Origin: a virus
Lineage: Duplodnaviria; Caudoviricetes
IMG/VR virus record: IMGVR_UViG_3300033067_000599
Location: 1 to 34,190 of that record
Length of the DNA stretch: 34,190 nt
Direction: 5' to 3' (one strand)
Both the position numbers and the translations under genes were made by a program. Shown piece after piece: positions 1,386 through 31,099 of the stretch (its first letter is position 1; each line of letters opens with the position of its first letter). A model generated the notes under the pieces. The model was not told where the DNA came from. It was given only the letters and a program-made list of their open reading frames with translations, and made no database searches.

Positions 1386-1741
1386 TCACCACCTACCGCA
1401 TTGTCGCACCATACTATGTTGCCGATCTAGTAAAAGACGAAGACACTATCGTACAAACCGCACCAATTCTCAAGTGGGCTATTGGTAAAAGCTGGGAGTT
1501 TGTCCGCGAATACCTTCAGCGCAAAGGGTACACAATCGAACCCGTAATCGACGAAGCAGAAACACGCTTTGCCTTTGAGACTAAGGCAGGCACATTTGTT
1601 GTCTACCACGCAGGAAGCTTCATACAAAAGATCGAATACTTTGACCACGAAGAAGAGAAGATCGAAGTAAAGTTCGACCAACTTCCTGACCATGTGCAAA
1701 TCTTTGTAATCGAAACAATCTTTGAGAACATTGAACTATGA
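1382..1741 (+). CDS. Hypothetical protein
   Basis: ATG at 1382 overlaps the upstream TGA (ATGA), and the stop overlaps the polymerase ATG. Start revised from 1367. Confidence 0.6.
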   Translation: MITTYRIVAPYYVADLVKDEDTIVQTAPILKWAIGKSWEFVREYLQRKGYTIEPVIDEAETRFAFETKAGTFVVYHAGSFIQKIEYFDHEEEKIEVKFDQLPDHVQIFVIETIFENIEL

Positions 1742-4407
1742 TTGTAAAAAATCGCTTTCCCACATTACAATCCCACCTACGTTTAGCAGTTATTGGAGAA
1801 TGTCCAAGCAAAGTCGAATCAGAAGAAGGAGAACCTCTTGTAGGTAAAGTAGGAGACTTTGTAGGTCGACTTCTGTCCCGTTCAGGCATATCCAAGGAAG
1901 CTTGTTTCCTCGGCAACCTTGCACAAGACCGAGCACCGAATGGTGACTTCTCTTCGTTTGATTGGAATGACAATATCGTTCAGAGCGGCCTACTCCAACT
2001 CGACATTGATCTAAAGGCATTCAAACCAAACATCATTCTCGCACTAGGCAACGCACCGTTACACTGGCTCAAGGTTGGAAACGTTGCTCCTAAAAAGGTA
2101 AAGAAAAAGGGTTTGTTTGTTTTCAAATGGCCTTACTCAGTATTCAACTGGCGTGGTTCAATCTTTCAATCACAATATGGAAAAGCGATTTCCACTCTTC
2201 TTCCCGCATACGTTTTACGAGATTACAGCACATCTCCTTTGCTACAGTTTGACATACGAAGAGCAGTATCGGAGGCGAAGACAAATACAATTGTTTTACC
2301 TGAAAGGAAAATTAACGCGTGCCCGTCTTTCTCCGATGTTACTAGCTTTCTACTGGCACTACATGCAAACCCACGTCTTGTTGCAATCGACATCGAGGGC
2401 GGAGTCTACGGCATGTCGTGCATCTCGTTTGCGGACCAAACAAATAACGCAATCATCGTACCCTTCTTCCGCAAGGACGGCACTAGCTACTGGAACCAAG
2501 ACGAGGAAGCCATAATTCTTCGTCTTCTCGCCACTGTTCTGGAGAACCCTGTTGTGCCCAAGGTTCTCCAGAACTCTCTTTATGACCGTTTTGTCCTAGC
2601 ATGGGCATACGGTATACGGGTCTTCGGAACTCAAGACGATACCATGCTAAAGCATTGGGAGAAGTTTTCAGAACTCCCAAAGGACCTTGGAACACAGGCG
2701 TCCATTTATACAATGGAGCCGTATTACAAGCAAGACCGGAAATCGAACTCCGACGACACGTTCTACCGCTATTGTTGTCTCGACAGCGCTGTAACCTACG
2801 AGATCAACAAAGTTCTCGAACCTAAAATTATCGGCTCTCCAAGAGTGCATTATACGTTCAATGTAAACCTTCTCAACGCTCTACTCTACATGGAGTTAAG
2901 AGGCACAGAGTATAATTCTGTCGAAGCAGCACAACGACGAGCTGCCATCAATATAGAACGCTACAAGCTTCAAGCCAAGATTAACACCTTGTCCGGTCGT
3001 GGGCTTACGAAACAAATTACAAGAGACGAACTAAGACGCCTATCCATAGATCGTTTTGTAATGAAAAAGTTCAGAAAACTTGCTGACAAAGTCGACGAGT
3101 CTATGAAAGCTTTTTGCTACACTAGCGACAGCAATACAGCACATGGCAATCTTTCTGACTACGCACAGTATCTTGTCTGTCTCTGCCAACCCAACCCTGA
3201 CCTAGCAACACTAGGTCAAATCGAAGACCTTCTTGGCCTCTCTCTAAACATCGAATCCCACAAGCAATTCACTCAATACCTATATGAAGAACAGTCTCTA
3301 CCCAAACAGTTTGACACCTCAAAAGATCCGCCAACTCTCTCAGCGAATTACGAAGCTTTACTCAACCTATCGAAAAAGACAACCCATCCGGTGCCCAAAG
3401 TGGCTATTGAACTACGTAGCCTACTTACTCGCCAACAAATGCTTTCAATCTCTGCGGATAGAGACGGTCGCATCCGGTGTGGATATAACATTGTCGGCTC
3501 AGAAACAGGACGTGTTACTTGCTATGAAAGCCCGACTGGATCGGGTTACAATCTTCAAACAATCCCTAAGTGCGACCGAGACTTATTCGTGGCTGACGAT
3601 GGTTTTTGGTACTTCCAATGTGATCTCGCTGGAGCTGACGGATGGACAGTGGCAGCATATTGTAAAATGCTTGGTGACTCAAACATGCTTGATGATTACA
3701 TGTTTGGAATCAAGCCTGCTAAAATCATCGCCCTTGCATTACGCGGCACAAAATGCGATTTCTCTAACCGCGAAAGCTTACGGGCTGCTAGCAAAACGGT
3801 CTCGTCTGAAGACTGGGACTACTTTGCTTGCAAACGAATCCAACACGGCACTTCCTACCTCGAAGGAGCAAGAACAACTTGCGAACAAATCTACACTGAC
3901 AGCGAAGGCAAGTTCTACATGGAAGAGAAGGAAGTAAAGAAACTCCAATACTGGCTTAAAGAAGAACGTTACGTTGGCATCCCACGCTGGCACGATTGGG
4001 TTGGGCGAAAGCTTCGAGACAACCCTATGCTGACCGCTGCGTCTGGTCAACAACGAATCTTCTTTGGTCGTCGTGACGAAATCCTACCTAAAGCAGTAGC
4101 GTTTGAACCCCAGGCAAACACAACCTATGCGACAAATCTTGCTATGCAAAATCTCTGGAATGACCCAGAAAATCGGACTACTGGAGAAACTATACCTTTC
4201 CATGTCGAACCTCTTCACCAAGTCCACGATGCACTCAACGGGCAATTTAGAAAAGAAAAAACCGAATGGTCAACTCGTAAGATTAAATCCTGGTTTAATA
4301 ACCCGCTAACCATTGCTGGGCAACAAATCACCATCCCGTATGACGGAGGCTATGGTCGCAACTGGTACGAAGCTGGAAGCGAAGAAAAACGAGTAGGCAA
4401 AATCTAG
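1738..4407 (+). CDS. Family A DNA polymerase with N-terminal UDG (family 4-like) domain and 3'-5' exonuclease
   Basis: UDG-like: IGECPSKVE..EGEPLVGKVG, PNIILALG. ExoI AIDIE, ExoII QNSLYD, ExoIII YCCLD. Polymerase motifs: ETGRV, NLQTIP, A (DLAGAD), B (KRIQHGTSY), C (QVHDA). Confidence 0.93.
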   Translation: MIVKNRFPTLQSHLRLAVIGECPSKVESEEGEPLVGKVGDFVGRLLSRSGISKEACFLGNLAQDRAPNGDFSSFDWNDNIVQSGLLQLDIDLKAFKPNIILALGNAPLHWLKVGNVAPKKVKKKGLFVFKWPYSVFNWRGSIFQSQYGKAISTLLPAYVLRDYSTSPLLQFDIRRAVSEAKTNTIVLPERKINACPSFSDVTSFLLALHANPRLVAIDIEGGVYGMSCISFADQTNNAIIVPFFRKDGTSYWNQDEEAIILRLLATVLENPVVPKVLQNSLYDRFVLAWAYGIRVFGTQDDTMLKHWEKFSELPKDLGTQASIYTMEPYYKQDRKSNSDDTFYRYCCLDSAVTYEINKVLEPKIIGSPRVHYTFNVNLLNALLYMELRGTEYNSVEAAQRRAAINIERYKLQAKINTLSGRGLTKQITRDELRRLSIDRFVMKKFRKLADKVDESMKAFCYTSDSNTAHGNLSDYAQYLVCLCQPNPDLATLGQIEDLLGLSLNIESHKQFTQYLYEEQSLPKQFDTSKDPPTLSANYEALLNLSKKTTHPVPKVAIELRSLLTRQQMLSISADRDGRIRCGYNIVGSETGRVTCYESPTGSGYNLQTIPKCDRDLFVADDGFWYFQCDLAGADGWTVAAYCKMLGDSNMLDDYMFGIKPAKIIALALRGTKCDFSNRESLRAASKTVSSEDWDYFACKRIQHGTSYLEGARTTCEQIYTDSEGKFYMEEKEVKKLQYWLKEERYVGIPRWHDWVGRKLRDNPMLTAASGQQRIFFGRRDEILPKAVAFEPQANTTYATNLAMQNLWNDPENRTTGETIPFHVEPLHQVHDALNGQFRKEKTEWSTRKIKSWFNNPLTIAGQQITIPYDGGYGRNWYEAGSEEKRVGKI

Positions 4408-19938: not shown

Positions 19939-20831
19939 TAGTCAAGAGCAACCGAAACGTTGCTGTCAATTATTGTCGAATTCCAGTTTTTCACATTATT
20001 CCAAGCCCTTTCGAGTGCTTTTTCTGAAATGCTCACTCGTTGGTCTTCTTTCAAAAAGAAGTTCAATTCAACAAGAGACTGCATTAGCATGTAGTCAAAA
20101 CAGAATTCTAGGAAAAAGTTTGAAAACGTACCGATTTGAAAAGCTTCTCCATTTGCCATAATGTTAGCATTTAGAGAAAGCTGAATCGCACTATCAACTG
20201 CGGTAACAATGGCGGAAGTAGCGTCAGTTGTGTTGTAAACAATATCTCCAATGTTTACAGAACCGTCGTTGAAAGTAGCTGTTCCGCAAATCAACTTACT
20301 AGCAGTAGCAGAAGTCGTGGTTCCAGAAACCGTTCCAAAGTCTGGCAACCATTCAATCACGTCAAAATAAACATCAAACGTCGAAGCCCCACTTACCTGA
20401 GGCATTACCATGAAATCTTGTCCAACAAAAACAATCTCCTTTTCTTGGTTCTCATCTGTTACATCATCAGGACGTTCACGAAAACGACGATACATGGACT
20501 TGACATAATCATCACGTTGAATCACGTTAATTGGATAAAACGTTGCTCCATTGTCCTCTGTCAACCACGCCTGTTTGACGTTCTTAATCTTCAAAGAGTT
20601 CCCATTTGAAACCCTTACCGCGGTCGTAAGCGACCCACCAGCAGTCGGACTAACCCCGGTCACTTTTGCAAATGTTCTTGCATACTCAAAATCAACAGCA
20701 CGTTGTGAAAAATCCTTAGCGTTATTAACCGCTTGAGTCAAGCAATCGACTCCGTCATAGACGAAGTCTGTCAGATTGCGAGACATAAAAGCTGCAATTT
20801 TTTTGCGAAGAGTGATTATTGTATTTGCCAT
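19938..20831 (-). CDS. Head-tail adaptor (tail tubular protein A-like)
   Basis: Helical N-terminus (LTQAVNNA...QRAVDF) and C-terminus (SNFFLEFCFDYML...FFLKED). First tail gene after the capsid block. Confidence 0.65.
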   Translation of the reverse strand: MANTIITLRKKIAAFMSRNLTDFVYDGVDCLTQAVNNAKDFSQRAVDFEYARTFAKVTGVSPTAGGSLTTAVRVSNGNSLKIKNVKQAWLTEDNGATFYPINVIQRDDYVKSMYRRFRERPDDVTDENQEKEIVFVGQDFMVMPQVSGASTFDVYFDVIEWLPDFGTVSGTTTSATASKLICGTATFNDGSVNIGDIVYNTTDATSAIVTAVDSAIQLSLNANIMANGEAFQIGTFSNFFLEFCFDYMLMQSLVELNFFLKEDQRVSISEKALERAWNNVKNWNSTIIDSNVSVALD

Positions 20832-20859
20832 AAATAATGCGCGTTGTTAGTATGCGCGC
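20832..20859 (-). terminator. Possible weak terminator/hairpin after the capsid block
   Basis: Minus strand reads GCGCG-catactaacaa-CGCGC then ATTATTT, in the largest intergenic gap of the operon (20832-20872). Confidence 0.35.
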
Positions 20860-20872
20860 CCCACTTGATTAC

Positions 20873-21064
20873 TTAGGTGCCTGAGTTGCGCCCACCAGGA
20901 CCAGAAATACCTTTGGCCTTGCCAGTCGAGTATTCCTTCGTCTCGTTAGTCGCCTTCTCTGCACCAGTCTTCCCAGTGGCTTCACCGTCGAGCACTTTCG
21001 TGTCTCGAAAGTCCTTAGCCTTACCAGGACCGACTACCATGTCTCTCAGATTAGGAGTTTCCAT
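20873..21064 (-). CDS. Small Gly/Lys/Thr-rich protein, possibly a minor capsid component
   Basis: 63-aa ORF that fills the gap, co-oriented with the operon. Confidence 0.55.
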   Translation of the reverse strand: METPNLRDMVVGPGKAKDFRDTKVLDGEATGKTGAEKATNETKEYSTGKAKGISGPGGRNSGT

Positions 21065-21069
21065 ATGTT

Positions 21070-21408
21070 TTACCGATAACCATGAACTTCAATACGAGCT
21101 TCAGTTGTGGTTAAATCCGCAGGGTCTCCACGAGAACCATCAGTAGCATTCTCAATGTTTGCGACATAAACCGCTGAACCATCAGAGCTTGGAACGGCAG
21201 GATAAATGAGCGTGTTTGTCACGTCAAGAATCGCTCCACAACTCTCGATCTTGGTAAACCCAAGAGCAGAAGCAGTGATTTTGTTTGCAGCACTACCTTG
21301 ACCAGTCAAGACCAGAGTCAACAATGCACCAACTCGATCTTTCCCGGTTACTCCACCCTCGGACCAAGCACGAACTACTGTTACCGCAGATGCGTCTAGG
21401 TCAGCCAT
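21070..21408 (-). CDS. Probable capsid decoration/cement protein (no signal peptide)
   Basis: 112 aa, beta-rich, downstream of MCP, ends IEVHGYR. Paralog of 21412-21882. Confidence 0.6.
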   Translation of the reverse strand: MADLDASAVTVVRAWSEGGVTGKDRVGALLTLVLTGQGSAANKITASALGFTKIESCGAILDVTNTLIYPAVPSSDGSAVYVANIENATDGSRGDPADLTTTEARIEVHGYR

Positions 21409-21411
21409 AGG

Positions 21412-21882
21412 TTATCGAACTCCTCGCAGGATAAACCGATAAGAGTTACCCAACCCTAGGTTTGTTTGAGAACCAAGCATGCTCTTGTTCGCCCAAGCAC
21501 CTTGACCTAGCAACGGTCCACCAATTGCATTCGTATTCTGAAACGAAAGCAACTGAGAACCGTCAAAGTTGGGTCGAACAAAGACAGGAGTATTATTGCT
21601 TCGCATAAAAACGGTACAGTCGATAATTCGACTAAAACCGAAATTGGAAGCATAAATAGTGTCAACGTCTCCTACCCAAGTTGTATTAGTATTGATGAAG
21701 TTCAACGTTAGGTCTTGTACCACCACAAAACGAAACAGTTCCTGAGAAGGCTCAGTCCACATTACGTTCGTGACAATAGAAGCCCCGTTAGTTGAAAGCA
21801 AGTCACTAAGCAAAAGGGCACCACGAGTAACCCCCGGCAAACACAGGGCCAGGGCCAGCACTAGATTACGAATCATTTTCAT
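21412..21882 (-). CDS. Signal-peptide-bearing paralog of the decoration-like protein
   Basis: ATG lies 1 nt after the MCP stop (TAA C ATG). MKMIRNLVLALALCLPGVTRG/A looks like a Sec signal, and the mature part aligns with 21070-21408. Confidence 0.65.
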   Translation of the reverse strand: MKMIRNLVLALALCLPGVTRGALLLSDLLSTNGASIVTNVMWTEPSQELFRFVVVQDLTLNFINTNTTWVGDVDTIYASNFGFSRIIDCTVFMRSNNTPVFVRPNFDGSQLLSFQNTNAIGGPLLGQGAWANKSMLGSQTNLGLGNSYRFILRGVR

Positions 21883-21883
21883 G

Positions 21884-23269
21884 TTAGGGAGCATAAGACT
21901 GAATGTTCTTGATAAACATGTGGCTCTCTGGATAGCGGAGTTCAAACCCTGCTTCAGTCAGCCATTCGTCACGACGAAAATCATCGCCGTTGTTTTGTCG
22001 ATTCTTCAACAACTGGGTATCGCGACCAGCAAGATAGCGATAGACCAAGTTGTTCACATCAAGGATCAACATGCAGTTACGCAAGTTCGAGTCCTCGTTG
22101 AAAAGAGGATGTGTCTTGTAATACATCGTGCCGAAAGGAGACACGTGTTTCACAACGTCCATCCCGTAGGTGTCCGACATAGGCAGACCAGATTGCAAGA
22201 CCGCCTTGCCCTTGTACATCTGATTCACCACGTTCAACGCACCGTTGCCACAGAAAACGAGCTTCTCGTTGGTCGAGTTGTTCGTCGTACGGAAAGCACG
22301 TTCAACATACCCGTCAAACGTTTTCTCCGTAATTACTCCAGAGGCATTTTCAATAATGCGTTTGTTGTCGTCCGTGTCACCAGTGATCTGTGCAGCAGAT
22401 GCACCGCGGTACTTGATCTCGGCCACACTACCAGCCATTTCCCACTGCTCAAGGAACCAAAGAATACCACCGAAGGTAAACAATGGCAGACCTTGCAGGC
22501 CAGTGGTCTTAGTGCGCGAGTTGAAGAACAAAGCTCGCTCGAATTCAGTCATGTGCTGAATCGAATGCTCTTTCGCTTTGTGCTTGTAAGGACCGGTTTC
22601 GTCGAACTTCAGCGAAGTCTTCAGTGCCGTGCCAGTCAGTGAGAAAGGCGTTCGGAGAATCTGGCAATAGTTGCCGACTGCCAAAGGCAGGTTGAAGTAT
22701 TCCGCAGTAGGCCCAACAGAACCTTGTTCGAAACCTTGGCCAACGATGATTGCGCGGTTACCCACGTTTTCGTTAGTCGTTCCGTTTTGCGGCCGGTTCT
22801 TAATCGTGCTCGAATGCGCAGACAGAGCAATGAACGTCACATACTTTGACGCACCATCAATTTTCTCTGTAATCAAGCCACGAACTTCGGTCGTCCCGGT
22901 CTGATCCGTTGTGTCGATATTACAACGTACGCTAAAAACGTCACCAACCTTCAAAGGAGCAAGGTCGGAAACATACATGCGATACGATGTGTTTCGAGTA
23001 ATAGGAGCCGGGTCGGTGAGAACCGTGCCACTGGTGTCCGTAAACGGTCCTTTGCTTGCACCAGAGGAAGCAGTGGTAGTTGCACGGGCAACATAGCGCT
23101 GTTCGTTCCAGTTAAACTCAGGATCGTTTGTTTCCTCTTCGGGCAGTAGGGACAAAATCCCGAGGAGCGGGGACTTCCCATTCGGATACTGATAGAACAC
23201 CCGACGACGGTTATTCTTATACCGCCATGAGCTGTCCGATTCAGTAGTTACTAGGCCAAGAATAGGCAT
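21884..23269 (-). CDS. Major capsid protein (HK97 fold, SU10/DUF5309-like)
   Basis: 461 aa after the scaffold. PEFNWNE, NYCQILRTPFSLTGT, EFERALFF, GGILWFL and EWLTEAGFELRYPESH motifs. Confidence 0.88.
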   Translation of the reverse strand: MPILGLVTTESDSSWRYKNNRRRVFYQYPNGKSPLLGILSLLPEEETNDPEFNWNEQRYVARATTTASSGASKGPFTDTSGTVLTDPAPITRNTSYRMYVSDLAPLKVGDVFSVRCNIDTTDQTGTTEVRGLITEKIDGASKYVTFIALSAHSSTIKNRPQNGTTNENVGNRAIIVGQGFEQGSVGPTAEYFNLPLAVGNYCQILRTPFSLTGTALKTSLKFDETGPYKHKAKEHSIQHMTEFERALFFNSRTKTTGLQGLPLFTFGGILWFLEQWEMAGSVAEIKYRGASAAQITGDTDDNKRIIENASGVITEKTFDGYVERAFRTTNNSTNEKLVFCGNGALNVVNQMYKGKAVLQSGLPMSDTYGMDVVKHVSPFGTMYYKTHPLFNEDSNLRNCMLILDVNNLVYRYLAGRDTQLLKNRQNNGDDFRRDEWLTEAGFELRYPESHMFIKNIQSYAP

Positions 23270-26375: not shown

Positions 26376-26585
26376 TCACTTAGCAGCAGCCTCTCGACTC
26401 ATTGTTTGGTCGAGATAAGCGCGAAGAGTTGTGAAAACAGGAATGGTCACGAAGACACCAAAGCGGGTCCAACCCACCCAAGACCATGCTGGGGTTTCGC
26501 TGCTATCAAACGTTTCCAACTGCGTAGCAAGAGCGGTCAGAAGAGAGATAATAAGGTAACAAAAAAGTTTAGTCTTTCCGTTCAT
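26376..26585 (-). CDS. Small two-TM membrane protein, holin candidate
   Basis: 69 aa with two hydrophobic segments and a charged TLRAYLD...K C-terminus. Confidence 0.55.
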   Translation of the reverse strand: MNGKTKLFCYLIISLLTALATQLETFDSSETPAWSWVGWTRFGVFVTIPVFTTLRAYLDQTMSREAAAK

Positions 26586-26947
26586 TACTTAGCAATGGTT
26601 ACATTCACATTCACGATCACGGATACTGCTCCGGTGGAAGCGGTCACATTTGTCGAAAGCTGTGTCAAATCCACAGTCACTGGAGTTGAGAATGCGCAGA
26701 GGTTGGAACTACGAGCACTCTCTCCATTAGAAGAGAAAGCAGTCACCGCATAACATCCTGGAACAACTGGGCCGTAATTAGTCTGAGTTGTCTCACCGAC
26801 CAGAACCCAATTAGTTCCATTTTCGCGGTAAAGTCTATATCCAACCACTTCCGGCTCTGGGTTCTTCCACCAAGCAAAGGTCCACAGATTTGCAGCATCT
26901 GCGTAAATAGCGCCGAGAAGAAACAAAGCAAGGGCAAAATGTTTCAT
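26585..26947 (-). CDS. Secreted fibronectin type III-like protein
   Basis: Signal MKHFALALFLLGAIYADA/ANL. FN3 pattern W..NPEPEVVGYRLY...YAVTAF...GESARS. Confidence 0.7.
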   Translation of the reverse strand: MKHFALALFLLGAIYADAANLWTFAWWKNPEPEVVGYRLYRENGTNWVLVGETTQTNYGPVVPGCYAVTAFSSNGESARSSNLCAFSTPVTVDLTQLSTNVTASTGAVSVIVNVNVTIAK

Positions 26948-27720
26948 GGTTGAATAGGGTATAGGTTGGTCATGTAGCTAAAAAGAGACGCCATGTCCGA
27001 GGCGGGGAGGTTTGTGCCGTAAACAGAGAAAGTGCCGATGTGTCCGTTGAAGAAATTCGCGTTGTTCATCGCTCCCAGCGTCAGGCCATTCAATCCAAAC
27101 AACCCGCAATTTCCAGAGAAAATGGAAACCCCATTACTCACGACAGTCGCCTGCCCGTTATTTGCGGTGATCGCATACGTTGTCCAATTCGTCCGCGCTG
27201 CCCCCCAAGAAACATTGGTCCCCAAAGACAGCCTCACGTAGCCAGAATTCGCATACAAAGACCCGCCCGAGGCGTTGGTCGAACCGATCACAATTTGAGC
27301 CGACGAAGGAACTGCCGCGAAACGCAAGGCGATCATGATAGTCAAAGGCTGCGGAAGAACCACGGAGCAGTTTGTGATGAAATCTGCTGCCTGAAAGGAG
27401 ACAACGTCGTGCCCGTTCCAGACCGTAGAGTAAAACACGGGATAGCGGCTTCCAAAGTTGATCAAATTACCACTAGACCCCAAGCTCGACTTGTTTGCCC
27501 AAGAGACAATGTTGTTGCCATCATTGTAAGTCGCATCGAGGTCATCGGCCTCATACCAAGCCCGAAGCCAAGTGCTGTCCGAAGGCAGCATGGACCCACT
27601 AGCCACTGGCGCATCCACATACAACAGAGCAAGACCCTCAGGCGTGCTCAGTATATCCTGTGATTTGACAGGACTAACGAGAATGAGCCAAGCCAACAAG
27701 AATGTTCGATTGATTTGCAT
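26944..27720 (-). CDS. Secreted ConA/LamG-like lectin-fold protein
   Basis: Signal-like MQINRTFLLAWLILVSPVKS/Q. LRAWYEADDL...VSWANKS...FFNGHIG..SVY...L..Y is a LamG-like pattern. Confidence 0.65.
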   Translation of the reverse strand: MQINRTFLLAWLILVSPVKSQDILSTPEGLALLYVDAPVASGSMLPSDSTWLRAWYEADDLDATYNDGNNIVSWANKSSLGSSGNLINFGSRYPVFYSTVWNGHDVVSFQAADFITNCSVVLPQPLTIMIALRFAAVPSSAQIVIGSTNASGGSLYANSGYVRLSLGTNVSWGAARTNWTTYAITANNGQATVVSNGVSIFSGNCGLFGLNGLTLGAMNNANFFNGHIGTFSVYGTNLPASDMASLFSYMTNLYPIQP

Positions 27721-29068
27721 TACAGAGACCTAACGATTTTACACCAATCTCCAGAATCGACCCGTTTGTCACAATAAATGGATTCACCCAAGAACCACCA
27801 AGCCCCCTCACCCCAAGTACAAAAGCAAGCGTACGATTAGTGGTCACAGTCGCATTAACTACAGAGATTGACATTCTTCCCACAGTATTCGCAGGTGCAT
27901 TAGTGAAAAAGAACACCATCTGAGCATTAGTCAAAGATGGGACTACATAATTCGGATGCTGATTCGTACCTGCTGCGCTAAAGTCAAACATATAGTTGCT
28001 CGCGGTGCCACTCACACCCCAGTTGGTGATGAAAATCTGATTAGTCAACACACCAGTTCCTGAGATGTTCTGTAGAATAGAATTACTCTCCTGCTTGGAC
28101 GCGGTGGTGATTCCCGCCCAATTGTTCAAATTCCCAGTTGTATCAAGAAAGTTTGAACCACCAGCATTTCTCACATTGATGTTTGATCCGCCAATGAGAA
28201 CATTTGTGAAAGTCTTAGACGCCAGACCAGAGATAGTTGTCAAAAAACCATTACTCTCTTGTTTAGACGCTGTGGTAATCGCGCTCCAATTTGTCAAGTC
28301 AGGATCTGCTGGTTGTCTAGTTACGGTCCAATTAGTCACTACTCCAGTATTAGTACTTGGAAGATCCTTCCACTCCCAAACCACATCACCAGATCCAACC
28401 TGTGGAATCTTCCCTTGTTGAGCGCCACTGAGCAGCAGGTTCGGATTAGCTGCAATGTTCGTATCCCATCCAGCCCACTTAGTCAGATTAACGTTTGTTG
28501 GTTGTGCACCATTAAGATTCGTCAACGCCGCTCCATTTGCGATGTTACCGAGAACTGAATTACTCTGTAACTTTCCAGTCAATGAGTTTGTAGGCAAAGC
28601 ACCCCAAGAAGCTTGCCAGACATTCGTGTCTAATTTGAAAGTAATAGAATTACTCCCCAAGCCACCCCATAAAGAATGCCAAGTATTACTATCTAACTTA
28701 GAAGTAAGCGAATTACTTCCAAGCGAACCCCAAGCATTCCACCAAGCGTTCGAGTCAAGTTTCACAGTAATTGCTGTGGTTGCGATCAAACTCCAGTTGG
28801 TGAGATTAAACGTTCCCCACTGCCTCGAATTTGTTCCACCCGCATCTCCCGAACCAGTGAATGTTGCGGGCATGTGGAAGCGAACTGCCCAAACCAGAGT
28901 GGTTCCTTGAATCCAATTCGTGGTCTCAACCACCATATTCGACCCACTAAGAAACGTGCTTTTCAGCCAGTTTGTTGGAGTCACTACTCCGTTCGTTGTA
29001 TTAATGTTCAACGTGGCACTTTGTGCCAAAAATGGGAAAATCAGAAAGATGAAAAAAAGTTTCTTCAT
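27674..29068 (-). CDS. Secreted repetitive tail-fibre-like protein
   Basis: Start revised to ATG 29068 (ATGA overlap). Signal MKKLFFIFLIFPFLAQS/A; 21-aa repeats and QPxDxxLT-type fibre repeats. Confidence 0.65.
   Translation of the reverse strand: MKKLFFIFLIFPFLAQSATLNINTTNGVVTPTNWLKSTFLSGSNMVVETTNWIQGTTLVWAVRFHMPATFTGSGDAGGTNSRQWGTFNLTNWSLIATTAITVKLDSNAWWNAWGSLGSNSLTSKLDSNTWHSLWGGLGSNSITFKLDTNVWQASWGALPTNSLTGKLQSNSVLGNIANGAALTNLNGAQPTNVNLTKWAGWDTNIAANPNLLLSGAQQGKIPQVGSGDVVWEWKDLPSTNTGVVTNWTVTRQPADPDLTNWSAITTASKQESNGFLTTISGLASKTFTNVLIGGSNINVRNAGGSNFLDTTGNLNNWAGITTASKQESNSILQNISGTGVLTNQIFITNWGVSGTASNYMFDFSAAGTNQHPNYVVPSLTNAQMVFFFTNAPANTVGRMSISVVNATVTTNRTLAFVLGVRGLGGSWVNPFIVTNGSILEIGVKSLGLCNANQSNILVGLAHSR
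28559..28768 (-). repeat. 63-nt (21-aa) degenerate tandem repeat, about 3.3 copies
   Basis: TVKLDSNAWWNAWGSLGSNSL / TSKLDSNTWHSLWGGLGSNSI / TFKLDTNVWQASWGALPTNSL / TGKLQSN. Confidence 0.85.
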
Positions 29069-29394
29069 GCAGCTTCCCAAGTAAGTGTAATCGCGCCATT
29101 AACAACAGGCAACGACAAATTATACAACGCTCCGTCTCCACCAAGAATTGGAAGAATACTTGGATACGCCGCAACTGGTTCCCAGTCAAGAGTCACTGTT
29201 CCATCAACAACGGGCATTGTTAGTTTGTACAACTGACCATCTCCACCAACCAAATACGGAGTTATCGCTCCACCACTTCCAGCTATAGAAAGCAAAGAGT
29301 TCATGGCAACAAGCAACTGGCCAACCTGTGACCGTAAAGCATTTACTCTACTGGTCAAAAGTGCCAATTCTTGTGCTGAACTTTGCGTAGCCAT
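29065..29394 (-). CDS. Small protein with N-terminal coiled coil and duplicated C-terminal beta motif
   Basis: GGDGQLYKLTMPVVDGTVTLDWE / GGDGALYNLSLPVVNGAITLTWE, 35-aa period. Confidence 0.65.
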   Translation of the reverse strand: MATQSSAQELALLTSRVNALRSQVGQLLVAMNSLLSIAGSGGAITPYLVGGDGQLYKLTMPVVDGTVTLDWEPVAAYPSILPILGGDGALYNLSLPVVNGAITLTWEAA

Positions 29395-29675
29395 TATTGT
29401 GGTTGGTAAGTCTTTACTGTATCGACACCAGGGATTTGAAGATTGTTTGTTGGATTAAGCGCACGAAAAAATGTGATCCATACTTGCATGTCATGTGTAC
29501 TCCAATCGTTACGAATATGGGACTCCATGATCGCCATACGATCATTTAGTTTTGACATTTCAAGCTTTACTCCTGTGATTGAACCGCCGATGATAAAAGC
29601 TGCGCCAACTATTGCCAGCACCAACCTTAATTGCACCCCGGAGGAATCCCTTATTGGTGTTTCGTTTTCTGGCAT
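29394..29675 (-). CDS. Single-TM membrane protein with coiled coil (lysis/holin-like candidate)
   Basis: LVLAIVGAAFIIGGSI TM segment followed by KLEMSKLNDRMAIME. Confidence 0.55.
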   Translation of the reverse strand: MPENETPIRDSSGVQLRLVLAIVGAAFIIGGSITGVKLEMSKLNDRMAIMESHIRNDWSTHDMQVWITFFRALNPTNNLQIPGVDTVKTYQPQ

Positions 29676-29680
29676 AATTA

Positions 29681-31099
29681 TTATGGTGCTTCGTTAGCTT
29701 CAAACGTGAAGTTAGTATTCGCAGGAGTCCCATTGTCATAATACCTAGTTGTGGGACCAAACGAATAGTTCCTGCCTACTTTCACACCACTGCTAACACC
29801 TAATCCCCAAATGATATACGATCCTGAATCTCCCTGAGCACTATTCATAGCGATCACGCTATTGGTTAAAAGACTTAAAGACAGCAATCTTCCACTGGCA
29901 GGATGTAACGTGCTGGTGTTATTAAAAATATAGAAGTCCGTGCTGTTTACCACGTCAATCAAACCCGAACGAATTCCAATTCCATGATTTCCAGTAATCA
30001 TGGCGTTTTTGGTAGTTGTTATGGAAATTCCAGTGATTGGACCTCGTCCACGATCAATAGTGATAGTATTACCGCTAATAGTCGCATTTGTAGCCGAATA
30101 AACTAAAATCCCAATGTTAGTGGCTCCCACTAGATAGTTATTAACAATCACGACGTTTGTCATTAGACCAAAGTTAATCAACGAACTAGATGGGCTACCA
30201 GCTAAAGGTGTCCCTGGACCTCCACGAAGAAAAGACGCGTCTTGATGAATAAAGTTTCCGGAGACTAGCACAGAACGCACTGTCCTAGAGCTTCCATCGC
30301 AGATACCTTGATACATACAATTCCAAATTGTATTGTTTCGAGCAACACACATGGTTGTGCCAGCACCGGAATTTCCACCAAAAGGCATCGCCCAAAACTC
30401 ACACGACCTAGAGCAACCATCTGTGATATTATTCTCGAATATCCCGACTCCCGCAAAAGCACCTCCATCCCACCCGATTTGAGATGAAATGTTCCCGTAG
30501 TTTCTGAAGTAGTTGTTTCTAACCACAATGCCGTTAGTAGACGGCACGTCGGACGAGTCCAAGACAGCAAAGTTCTGTCCGTCTAAGAACTGGCACTCCT
30601 CCACGGTAAGATACTCCGTAGCGGTCCCGTATTCCAAAGCACCATGAATCGGATAATCTATTGAATGGTTAAAGTTGCTATTGATTCCCTGGAACCGTAT
30701 CCCCTTAATCGTGACTCCAGAAGACCTTGAAACAGAGACACATGTATTCGTGTAATACGCGTCATAGATTGTTGGATTACCAACACCAATCAAGTTGAAG
30801 TTGGTCTTCGCCCAAATATTAATCCAAGTTCCACTGGCTCCCGACGCCCTAAACCTGCGCTTGTTATCATTAGTATACACGCCCGGCATGATCATAACCG
30901 TTTCCCCATTCGTTGCTGCAGCTACCGCGTTGGAAATGCTAAACCAAGCACGATGAATTTTTCCCCTTTCAGCATTAGAGTCTTTTCCCAAAGGAGAAAC
31001 ATACAAGATGTTTGTTCCAGCAACACCTGGTGGCTGAGTCGCATCTTGCGCAAACAACGAGCTTGTGAGGAAAAGAATTGGCAATAGTCGTTTAAACAT
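29681..31099 (-). CDS. Secreted right-handed parallel beta-helix protein (pectin-lyase fold, tailspike/depolymerase-like)
   Basis: Start revised to ATG 31099. Signal MFKRLLPILFLTSSLFA/Q; LYVSPLGKD, ISNAVAAA..GETVMIMPGVY, and repeated V.I.NN/GN rungs. Confidence 0.78.
   Translation of the reverse strand: MFKRLLPILFLTSSLFAQDATQPPGVAGTNILYVSPLGKDSNAERGKIHRAWFSISNAVAAATNGETVMIMPGVYTNDNKRRFRASGASGTWINIWAKTNFNLIGVGNPTIYDAYYTNTCVSVSRSSGVTIKGIRFQGINSNFNHSIDYPIHGALEYGTATEYLTVEECQFLDGQNFAVLDSSDVPSTNGIVVRNNYFRNYGNISSQIGWDGGAFAGVGIFENNITDGCSRSCEFWAMPFGGNSGAGTTMCVARNNTIWNCMYQGICDGSSRTVRSVLVSGNFIHQDASFLRGGPGTPLAGSPSSSLINFGLMTNVVIVNNYLVGATNIGILVYSATNATISGNTITIDRGRGPITGISITTTKNAMITGNHGIGIRSGLIDVVNSTDFYIFNNTSTLHPASGRLLSLSLLTNSVIAMNSAQGDSGSYIIWGLGVSSGVKVGRNYSFGPTTRYYDNGTPANTNFTFEANEAP

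Follow-up and report, generated by a model that had tools for sequence, protein, structure and literature searches.

A Divergent Copy of a Post-Capsid Phage Protein Family Carries a Predicted Sec Leader and the Composition of Other Leader-Bearing Proteins

Results

The Capsid Locus and Its Setting

The window (the whole stretch of 34,190 bases that was analyzed) is a record from an uncultured phage, with a completeness estimate of 71%. Its plus strand holds a replication module that includes a family A DNA polymerase (1738-4407, plus strand) whose N-terminal domain is uracil-DNA-glycosylase-like, and its minus strand holds a late operon with terminase, portal, a scaffold-like gene, an SU10-type capsid gene, and tail genes, a layout of the podovirus type. 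The major capsid protein gene (21884..23269, minus strand; 461 aa) matches Pfam PF17236 (E 1e-27) and PHROG 1328, and its nearest solved chain is 9IN6, the "major capsid of VP1" (E 1.5e-52); cultured phages are remote from the window phage, with capsid identities of at most 30%. A long plus-strand ORF at 21770-22642 is a shadow of the capsid gene.

On the minus strand, at the positions given in an earlier note on this DNA, lie ORF A, directly behind the capsid gene (21412-21882, 156 aa), and ORF B (21070..21408, 112 aa). The capsid gene ends in CCC-TAA (21884..21889, minus strand), one base before the ATG of A, and this hexamer is a possible +1 shifty stop. An ATG placed one base past the capsid stop is consistent with the short gaps of the late operon, in which 0-8 bases commonly separate the previous stop from the next start. 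By eye, a Shine-Dalgarno consensus is not apparent for most gene starts in the window. A Logan contig (run X1, probably the source sample) covers 20389-22001 with zero differences to the window.

ORF A Is a Divergent Homolog of ORF B

A and B are homologous. By BLASTP they match over a 48-aa core only (33% identity, E 1e-5), with a local score matched by 0 of 5000 shuffles. A family HMM built without A gives it 38.1 bits over residues 36-119, compared with a shuffle maximum of 8.6 bits (1680 reported out of 2000 shuffles), and HHalign of a 150-sequence family profile against A yields a probability of 96% (E 2e-9, 76 columns). The end-to-end alignment put forward in the earlier note is significant over the core by all three methods; at the ends the pairwise alignment is not significant, although the ends do align in the models and in the multiple alignment, where an N-terminal Leu and a C-terminal Gly are retained. 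The predicted fold is also shared. The AlphaFold2 model of B is a seven-strand beta-sandwich (pLDDT 95), and that of predicted mature A (135 aa, 21412..21819, minus strand) has seven strands in the same order at pLDDT 77, with a confident core (53 of 135 residues at pLDDT of at least 90), the family alignment used as input biasing it to that fold. The viral protein A0A6J5R2Z4 is the top fold-search match for both models.

B, which has no leader, is typical of an unnamed beta-sandwich family encoded behind the capsid gene and keeps 21 of the 22 conserved family columns, whereas A keeps 11, below every one of 149 family rows (mean 18, minimum 12). The core motifs are retained in A, and the conserved Gly...Thr-Asn loop and the N-terminal family motif are missing. 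To judge by these alignments, A is a derived outlier of the B family; its binding surface may be gone, and A may no longer dock where B does. In a family tree (quick mode, 72 of 242 sequences including A, 112 columns), A sits on the longest branch (2.36) with its placement unresolved, and B is absent from the 15 best pairwise matches of A, so that a recent duplication of B is unsupported. A phage with a 75% identical B has that gene directly behind its capsid gene and has no A. Sequence searches found no close relative of A, and for this reason selection on its leader cannot be measured.

The B Family Accompanies the Capsid Gene in Relatives

B has 8 close relatives, and a profile search extended the family to 470 representatives at an E of at most 0.001. 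The representative search used the best 150 of these 470 matches, and divergent leader-bearing copies could be among the other 320; a locus-based count, for which related loci were collected through capsid and portal alignments, is free of that bias. With redundant loci included, the family is found in 99 of 124 loci in which 700 bases or more follow the capsid gene. Of 63 distinct full-length capsid genes that score at least 357 bits, 60 are followed by the family, compared with 0 of 20 that are more distant. Some relatives carry leaderless copies in tandem, three in L001/L002/L084 and two each in L023, L029, and L033, so the tandem arrangement alone is ordinary here. At L031:12772-13137, about 1.3 kb downstream of the capsid gene, there is a second leaderless ORF that is family-like but very divergent (19 bits).

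Searches of Pfam, PHROGs, and NCBIfam gave no match for A or B and only sub-threshold matches for other members. A PDB sequence search returned one weak match at E 1.2 with a 14-row alignment and none with a 150-row alignment, and in the ESM Atlas B matched unnamed viral clusters and A nothing above 0.77. No cultured phage was matched in a search with B, and the family gene was undetected in five regions of cultured phages with related capsids. Small post-capsid genes of distant relatives (L061:11195-11881, in tandem; L073:1813-2151; L078:9846-10184) look family-like by eye yet fail HHalign. In L061, a 568-aa leader-bearing gene stands directly after the tandem post-capsid genes.

A conserved hydrophilic gene of 63 aa accompanies the family (20873..21064, minus strand, in the window). 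Among 107 loci with enough downstream DNA it is present in 86, including L045 and L050, which are both without the B family, and it is found in 84 of the 85 that hold the family. Its product could be an extended cement or rope peptide.

The position, size, and conservation of the B family suggest a particle-surface protein. As a rule, podophage cement genes stand at the post-capsid position. The cement and decoration proteins A1002 gp49, KHP30 gp15, Pam1 gp6, and GP4 gp1 (PMC13730344) are, like the B family, small, beta-rich, and encoded in the head module, and B has their size and position, yet no sequence or fold match to them was obtained; unlike A, they are given no export leader in the passages cited. 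The best solved-fold matches are fibre or spike tip domains, 4mtm for B (Z 5.2, rmsd 3.3, 85 aligned) and 6f7k for A (Z 5.4, rmsd 3.4, 100 aligned), values within the range of common beta-sandwich arrangements and too weak to assign a role. Neither cement nor decoration chains nor the GP4/VP1 fibre chains were among the top rows of the fold searches, in which nothing reached a Z of 8. A complex prediction of the capsid protein with B gave no usable answer (score 0.01). Given this lack of a cement or decoration fold match, the decoration role that the earlier note had proposed from position and size still has that same basis.

Among the Family Copies Examined, Only ORF A Has a Predicted Sec Leader

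The earlier note had also described a roughly 21-aa Sec-like leader on the longer copy, and this feature held up. The predicted Sec/SPase I leader (21820..21882, minus strand) consists of a basic stretch (MKMIRN), nine hydrophobic residues (LVLALALCL, hydropathy 3.3), and a Pro-Gly followed by a Thr-x-Gly cut site (PGVTRG). A signal-peptide rule of our own, which combines a basic n-region, a hydrophobic h-region, and small residues at -3 and -1, is satisfied from either Met of A (21882, 21876), compared with 8 of 9619 antisense Met starts and 0 of 242 family starts. Both candidate starts precede the hydrophobic stretch, and the next Met, M41, falls inside the first strand. No membrane anchor was seen in A. 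Export of A is well supported at the sequence level, and we consider it quite likely that translation starts at 21882 or 21876 and that the product is exported through Sec and cleaved behind Gly21.

When 118 distinct family cores (189 ORFs, from 174 of 254 loci) were compared, a hydrophobic leader was present in A and in no other, so that A is the single case in the B family. The extended N terminus of P0034 looks like an upstream start call.

A true homolog of an otherwise leaderless family from the phage morphogenesis module has a credible leader here, and this agrees with the earlier argument against capture of a host gene: homology to that family, together with the leader and a composition like that of the other leader-bearing proteins of the phage, makes capture of a host secreted gene unlikely, for A alone. 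The same note treated the pair as a natural internal control. The leaderless homolog does adjoin A, but the control is weaker than claimed, being a single case in which half of the conserved positions are lost and B is not even among the closest matches of A.

ORF A Shares a Thr-Asn Signature with Other Leader-Bearing Proteins

A is rich in Asn and poor in Lys, and relative to the leaderless family its Asn content is higher, its Lys and Ala contents are lower, and Thr-Asn pairs are more numerous. The many extra Asn residues remarked on earlier are borne out, with 10.4% Asn in mature A vs. a family mean of 4.8 ± 1.8% and 0 of 234 members as high. Thr-Asn pairs number 5 in A (1.2 expected, p 0.003), a count likewise reached by 0 of 234 members. 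Since no family member attains either level, A gained this signature together with its leader.

Four further late genes on the minus strand, between terminase and portal, carry leaders and are rich in Asn and poor in Lys, Asp, and Glu: a 120-aa gene, FN3-like by eye and without a family match (26585..26947); a 258-aa Thr-Asn-rich gene with a weak LamG-like match below the cut-off (26944..27720; PF13385, E 8e-4); a 464-aa gene with 21 Thr-Asn pairs (27674..29068); and a 472-aa beta-helix gene with 11 (29681..31099; PF13229, E 4e-6). The five leader-bearing proteins of the window, A included, hold 46 Thr-Asn pairs vs. 14.8 ± 3.7 expected, whereas the remaining 28 proteins hold 30 vs. 32 ± 5, the capsid protein among them having 4 vs. 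3.2. In relatives, 24 nonredundant leader-bearing proteins selected by an Asn cut-off of 7% hold 243 pairs vs. 100 ± 9. A mild excess (615 vs. 489) is also seen in Asn-rich ORFs without a called leader, some of which are leader proteins that were truncated or overlooked, and leader-bearing proteins that are poor in Asn have a smaller excess (42 vs. 31) than the Asn-rich ones. N-x-S/T sequons, in contrast, are not enriched in A (3 vs. 2.3), in the five window proteins (33 vs. 28.7 ± 4.7), or in the 24 proteins of relatives (173 vs. 179 ± 11). Thr-Asn tends to precede hydrophobic residues, so a structural cause is possible. A appears to be shifted toward the composition of exported proteins, which we regard as the best independent support for its export.

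Cassettes like that at 26585-31099 of the window are present in L010, L022, L033, L036, L039, L201, L211, L213, L216, L221, L223, and L244. When 15 leader-bearing proteins of relatives were compared with annotated families, one matched the tail-spike family PHROG 4636 (E 2e-6) and three matched families of unknown function, leaving 14 of 15 with no match to an annotated virion family. A short leader-bearing, Thr-Asn-rich gene of 88-102 aa lies between fibre and nozzle-like genes at L037:14518-14826 and in the region L039:14441-14785, the second instance, after A, of a gene with a leader amid structural genes. At L221:3171-4043, L225:3912-4670, and L047:3067-4365, an Ile-Ser-x-x-Pro motif, which we take to be one known from phage fibre N termini, directly follows the leader, with no family match over that part.

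The Thr-Asn-rich secreted proteins may point to Verrucomicrobiota subdivision 3 as the host. The sole genome match, contig L145 in a bin labelled Nitrososphaerota, was not taken as a sign of the host. The capsid and family genes of L145 match the viral records L016/L035, and the contig is probably misbinned.

Discussion

A is a divergent copy of a small beta-sandwich family found behind the capsid gene in this podovirus group. Our preferred interpretation, held tentatively, is that A is an exported, probably host-modified virion accessory that would join the particle after lysis. A would be exported by Sec to the host envelope together with the four other leader-bearing late proteins, and there it might be modified at Thr/Ser-Asn sites. 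Once the compartments mix at lysis, the most likely partners of A would be the particle or the exported fibre-like proteins, B probably filling the ordinary cytoplasmic, particle-surface role. The Thr-Asn signature, the frameshift option at CCC-TAA, and the leaderless tandem copies of relatives are additions to what the earlier note had described.

The main rival, unlikely in our judgment, holds that A is exported and then retained in the host envelope as a receptor mask, a superinfection block, or a chaperone for other exported proteins, never entering the particle. It draws on the same export evidence, namely the leader rule and the Thr-Asn bias, and the loss of half of the conserved family positions would fit a change of partner. 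Phage genes with signal peptides are moreover usually read as modifiers of the host envelope (PMC10367356). Porphyromonas gingivalis prophages encode Sec substrates of unknown function with Q-rule signal peptides (PMC10367356, PMC10653852), which resemble A in their predicted use of host Sec and in a host-adapted sequence feature; they differ in having Gln at +1 and in being read as host modifiers, whereas A has Ala at the predicted +1, a Thr-Asn bias, and an origin in the head module. For Verrucomicrobia phage P8625, the passages cited report no predicted signal peptides (PMC4642752). Retention in the envelope fits less well with the location of A in the late operon, flanked by the capsid gene and B, a place from which high output would be expected, with the companion exported genes, which are beta-helix, lectin-like, and in one relative tail-spike-like, and with the lack of a visible membrane anchor. 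The whole family might instead be some other small component of the virion, for example a chain-like fibre subunit strung on the 63-aa protein, with A its exported variant, a reading that seems to us improbable. The near-constant company of the 63-aa gene (84 of 85 family loci), the fibre or spike tip domains (4mtm, 6f7k) at the head of the fold matches, and the nearest solved capsid, which comes from VP1, a phage with fibre dimers, all lean toward it, and GP4 has a separate rope protein (PMC13730344). The fibre of Pseudomonas phage A1002 is built from two divergent paralogs, gp40 and gp41, the longer of which lacks about 30 N-terminal residues in the map, a segment suggested to be cleaved (PMC13730344). 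Like A and B, gp40 and gp41 are divergent paralogs of one small fold, and in A1002 both are in the virion; unlike A and B, the subunits (as also GP4 gp80 and VP1 gp11) are larger, no homology is evident, and the passages cited do not call the missing segment a signal peptide (PMC13730344). The GP4, VP1, and A1002 subunits measure 140-171 aa, compared with 100-125 aa for the family, and the Z values are within the common beta-sandwich range.

Two further explanations both appear highly unlikely. By one of them, most A would be produced fused to the C terminus of the capsid protein, through +1 frameshifting at CCC-UAA that gives a capsid-Asn-A product in which the hydrophobic stretch is an internal linker, so that A reaches the capsid without export. 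In SPP1 a +1 shift at the same hexamer, CCCUAA, lengthens the tail tube protein gp17.1 to gp17.1* (PMC6316719), and the window is alike in that a major structural gene ends with the hexamer, in the junction CCC-TAA-C-ATG, and the +1 frame stays open into a small beta domain; CCC is also the rarest Pro codon of the window phage (31 of 376). The window differs from SPP1 in that its signal is not conserved in relatives and in that A has its own Met and leader. All four Pro codons are found for the final capsid Pro of relatives. Where a family gene lies nearby, 11 of 77 distinct junctions end in CCC-TAA, of which only that of the window has the gene in the +1 frame, the other 10 having it in another frame. 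Furthermore, the leader has the full three-part form, and A has the Thr-Asn bias of leader-bearing proteins, which the capsid protein does not share. A minor fusion product could coexist with export. By the other explanation, A is a drifting, nonfunctional spare copy, whose leader and composition are without function. That A is a singleton, on the longest branch and with the fewest conserved columns, would agree with drift, but the 156-codon frame is intact, the core motifs are kept, a leader that so few antisense starts imitate is present, and the shift in composition is directional, toward that of exported proteins.

To our knowledge, tailed phages are taken to assemble their particles wholly in the cytoplasm. 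A wider form of our preferred interpretation, possible though doubtful, is that this phage group has a second assembly line outside the cytoplasm, in which virion accessories would be exported by Sec, modified by the host at an undescribed Thr/Ser-Asn motif, and loaded at lysis onto particles built in the cytoplasm; A would be a head-module protein that was transferred to this line on acquiring a leader and Thr-Asn sites. In the literature searched, mostly at the level of titles and abstracts, we found neither an exported decoration protein nor the B family or the Thr-Asn motif.

More than 200 leaderless family members can be compared with A, so that the changes accompanying export are visible, and the shift in composition points to a host envelope process that would read Thr/Ser-Asn and not N-x-S/T. 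If A stays in the envelope, it would still be a clear, if less surprising, reuse of a head-module fold in another compartment. With a predicted leader on a head-module protein, beside a leaderless relative, one could ask directly whether proteins that have been exported can end up in the virion after lysis.
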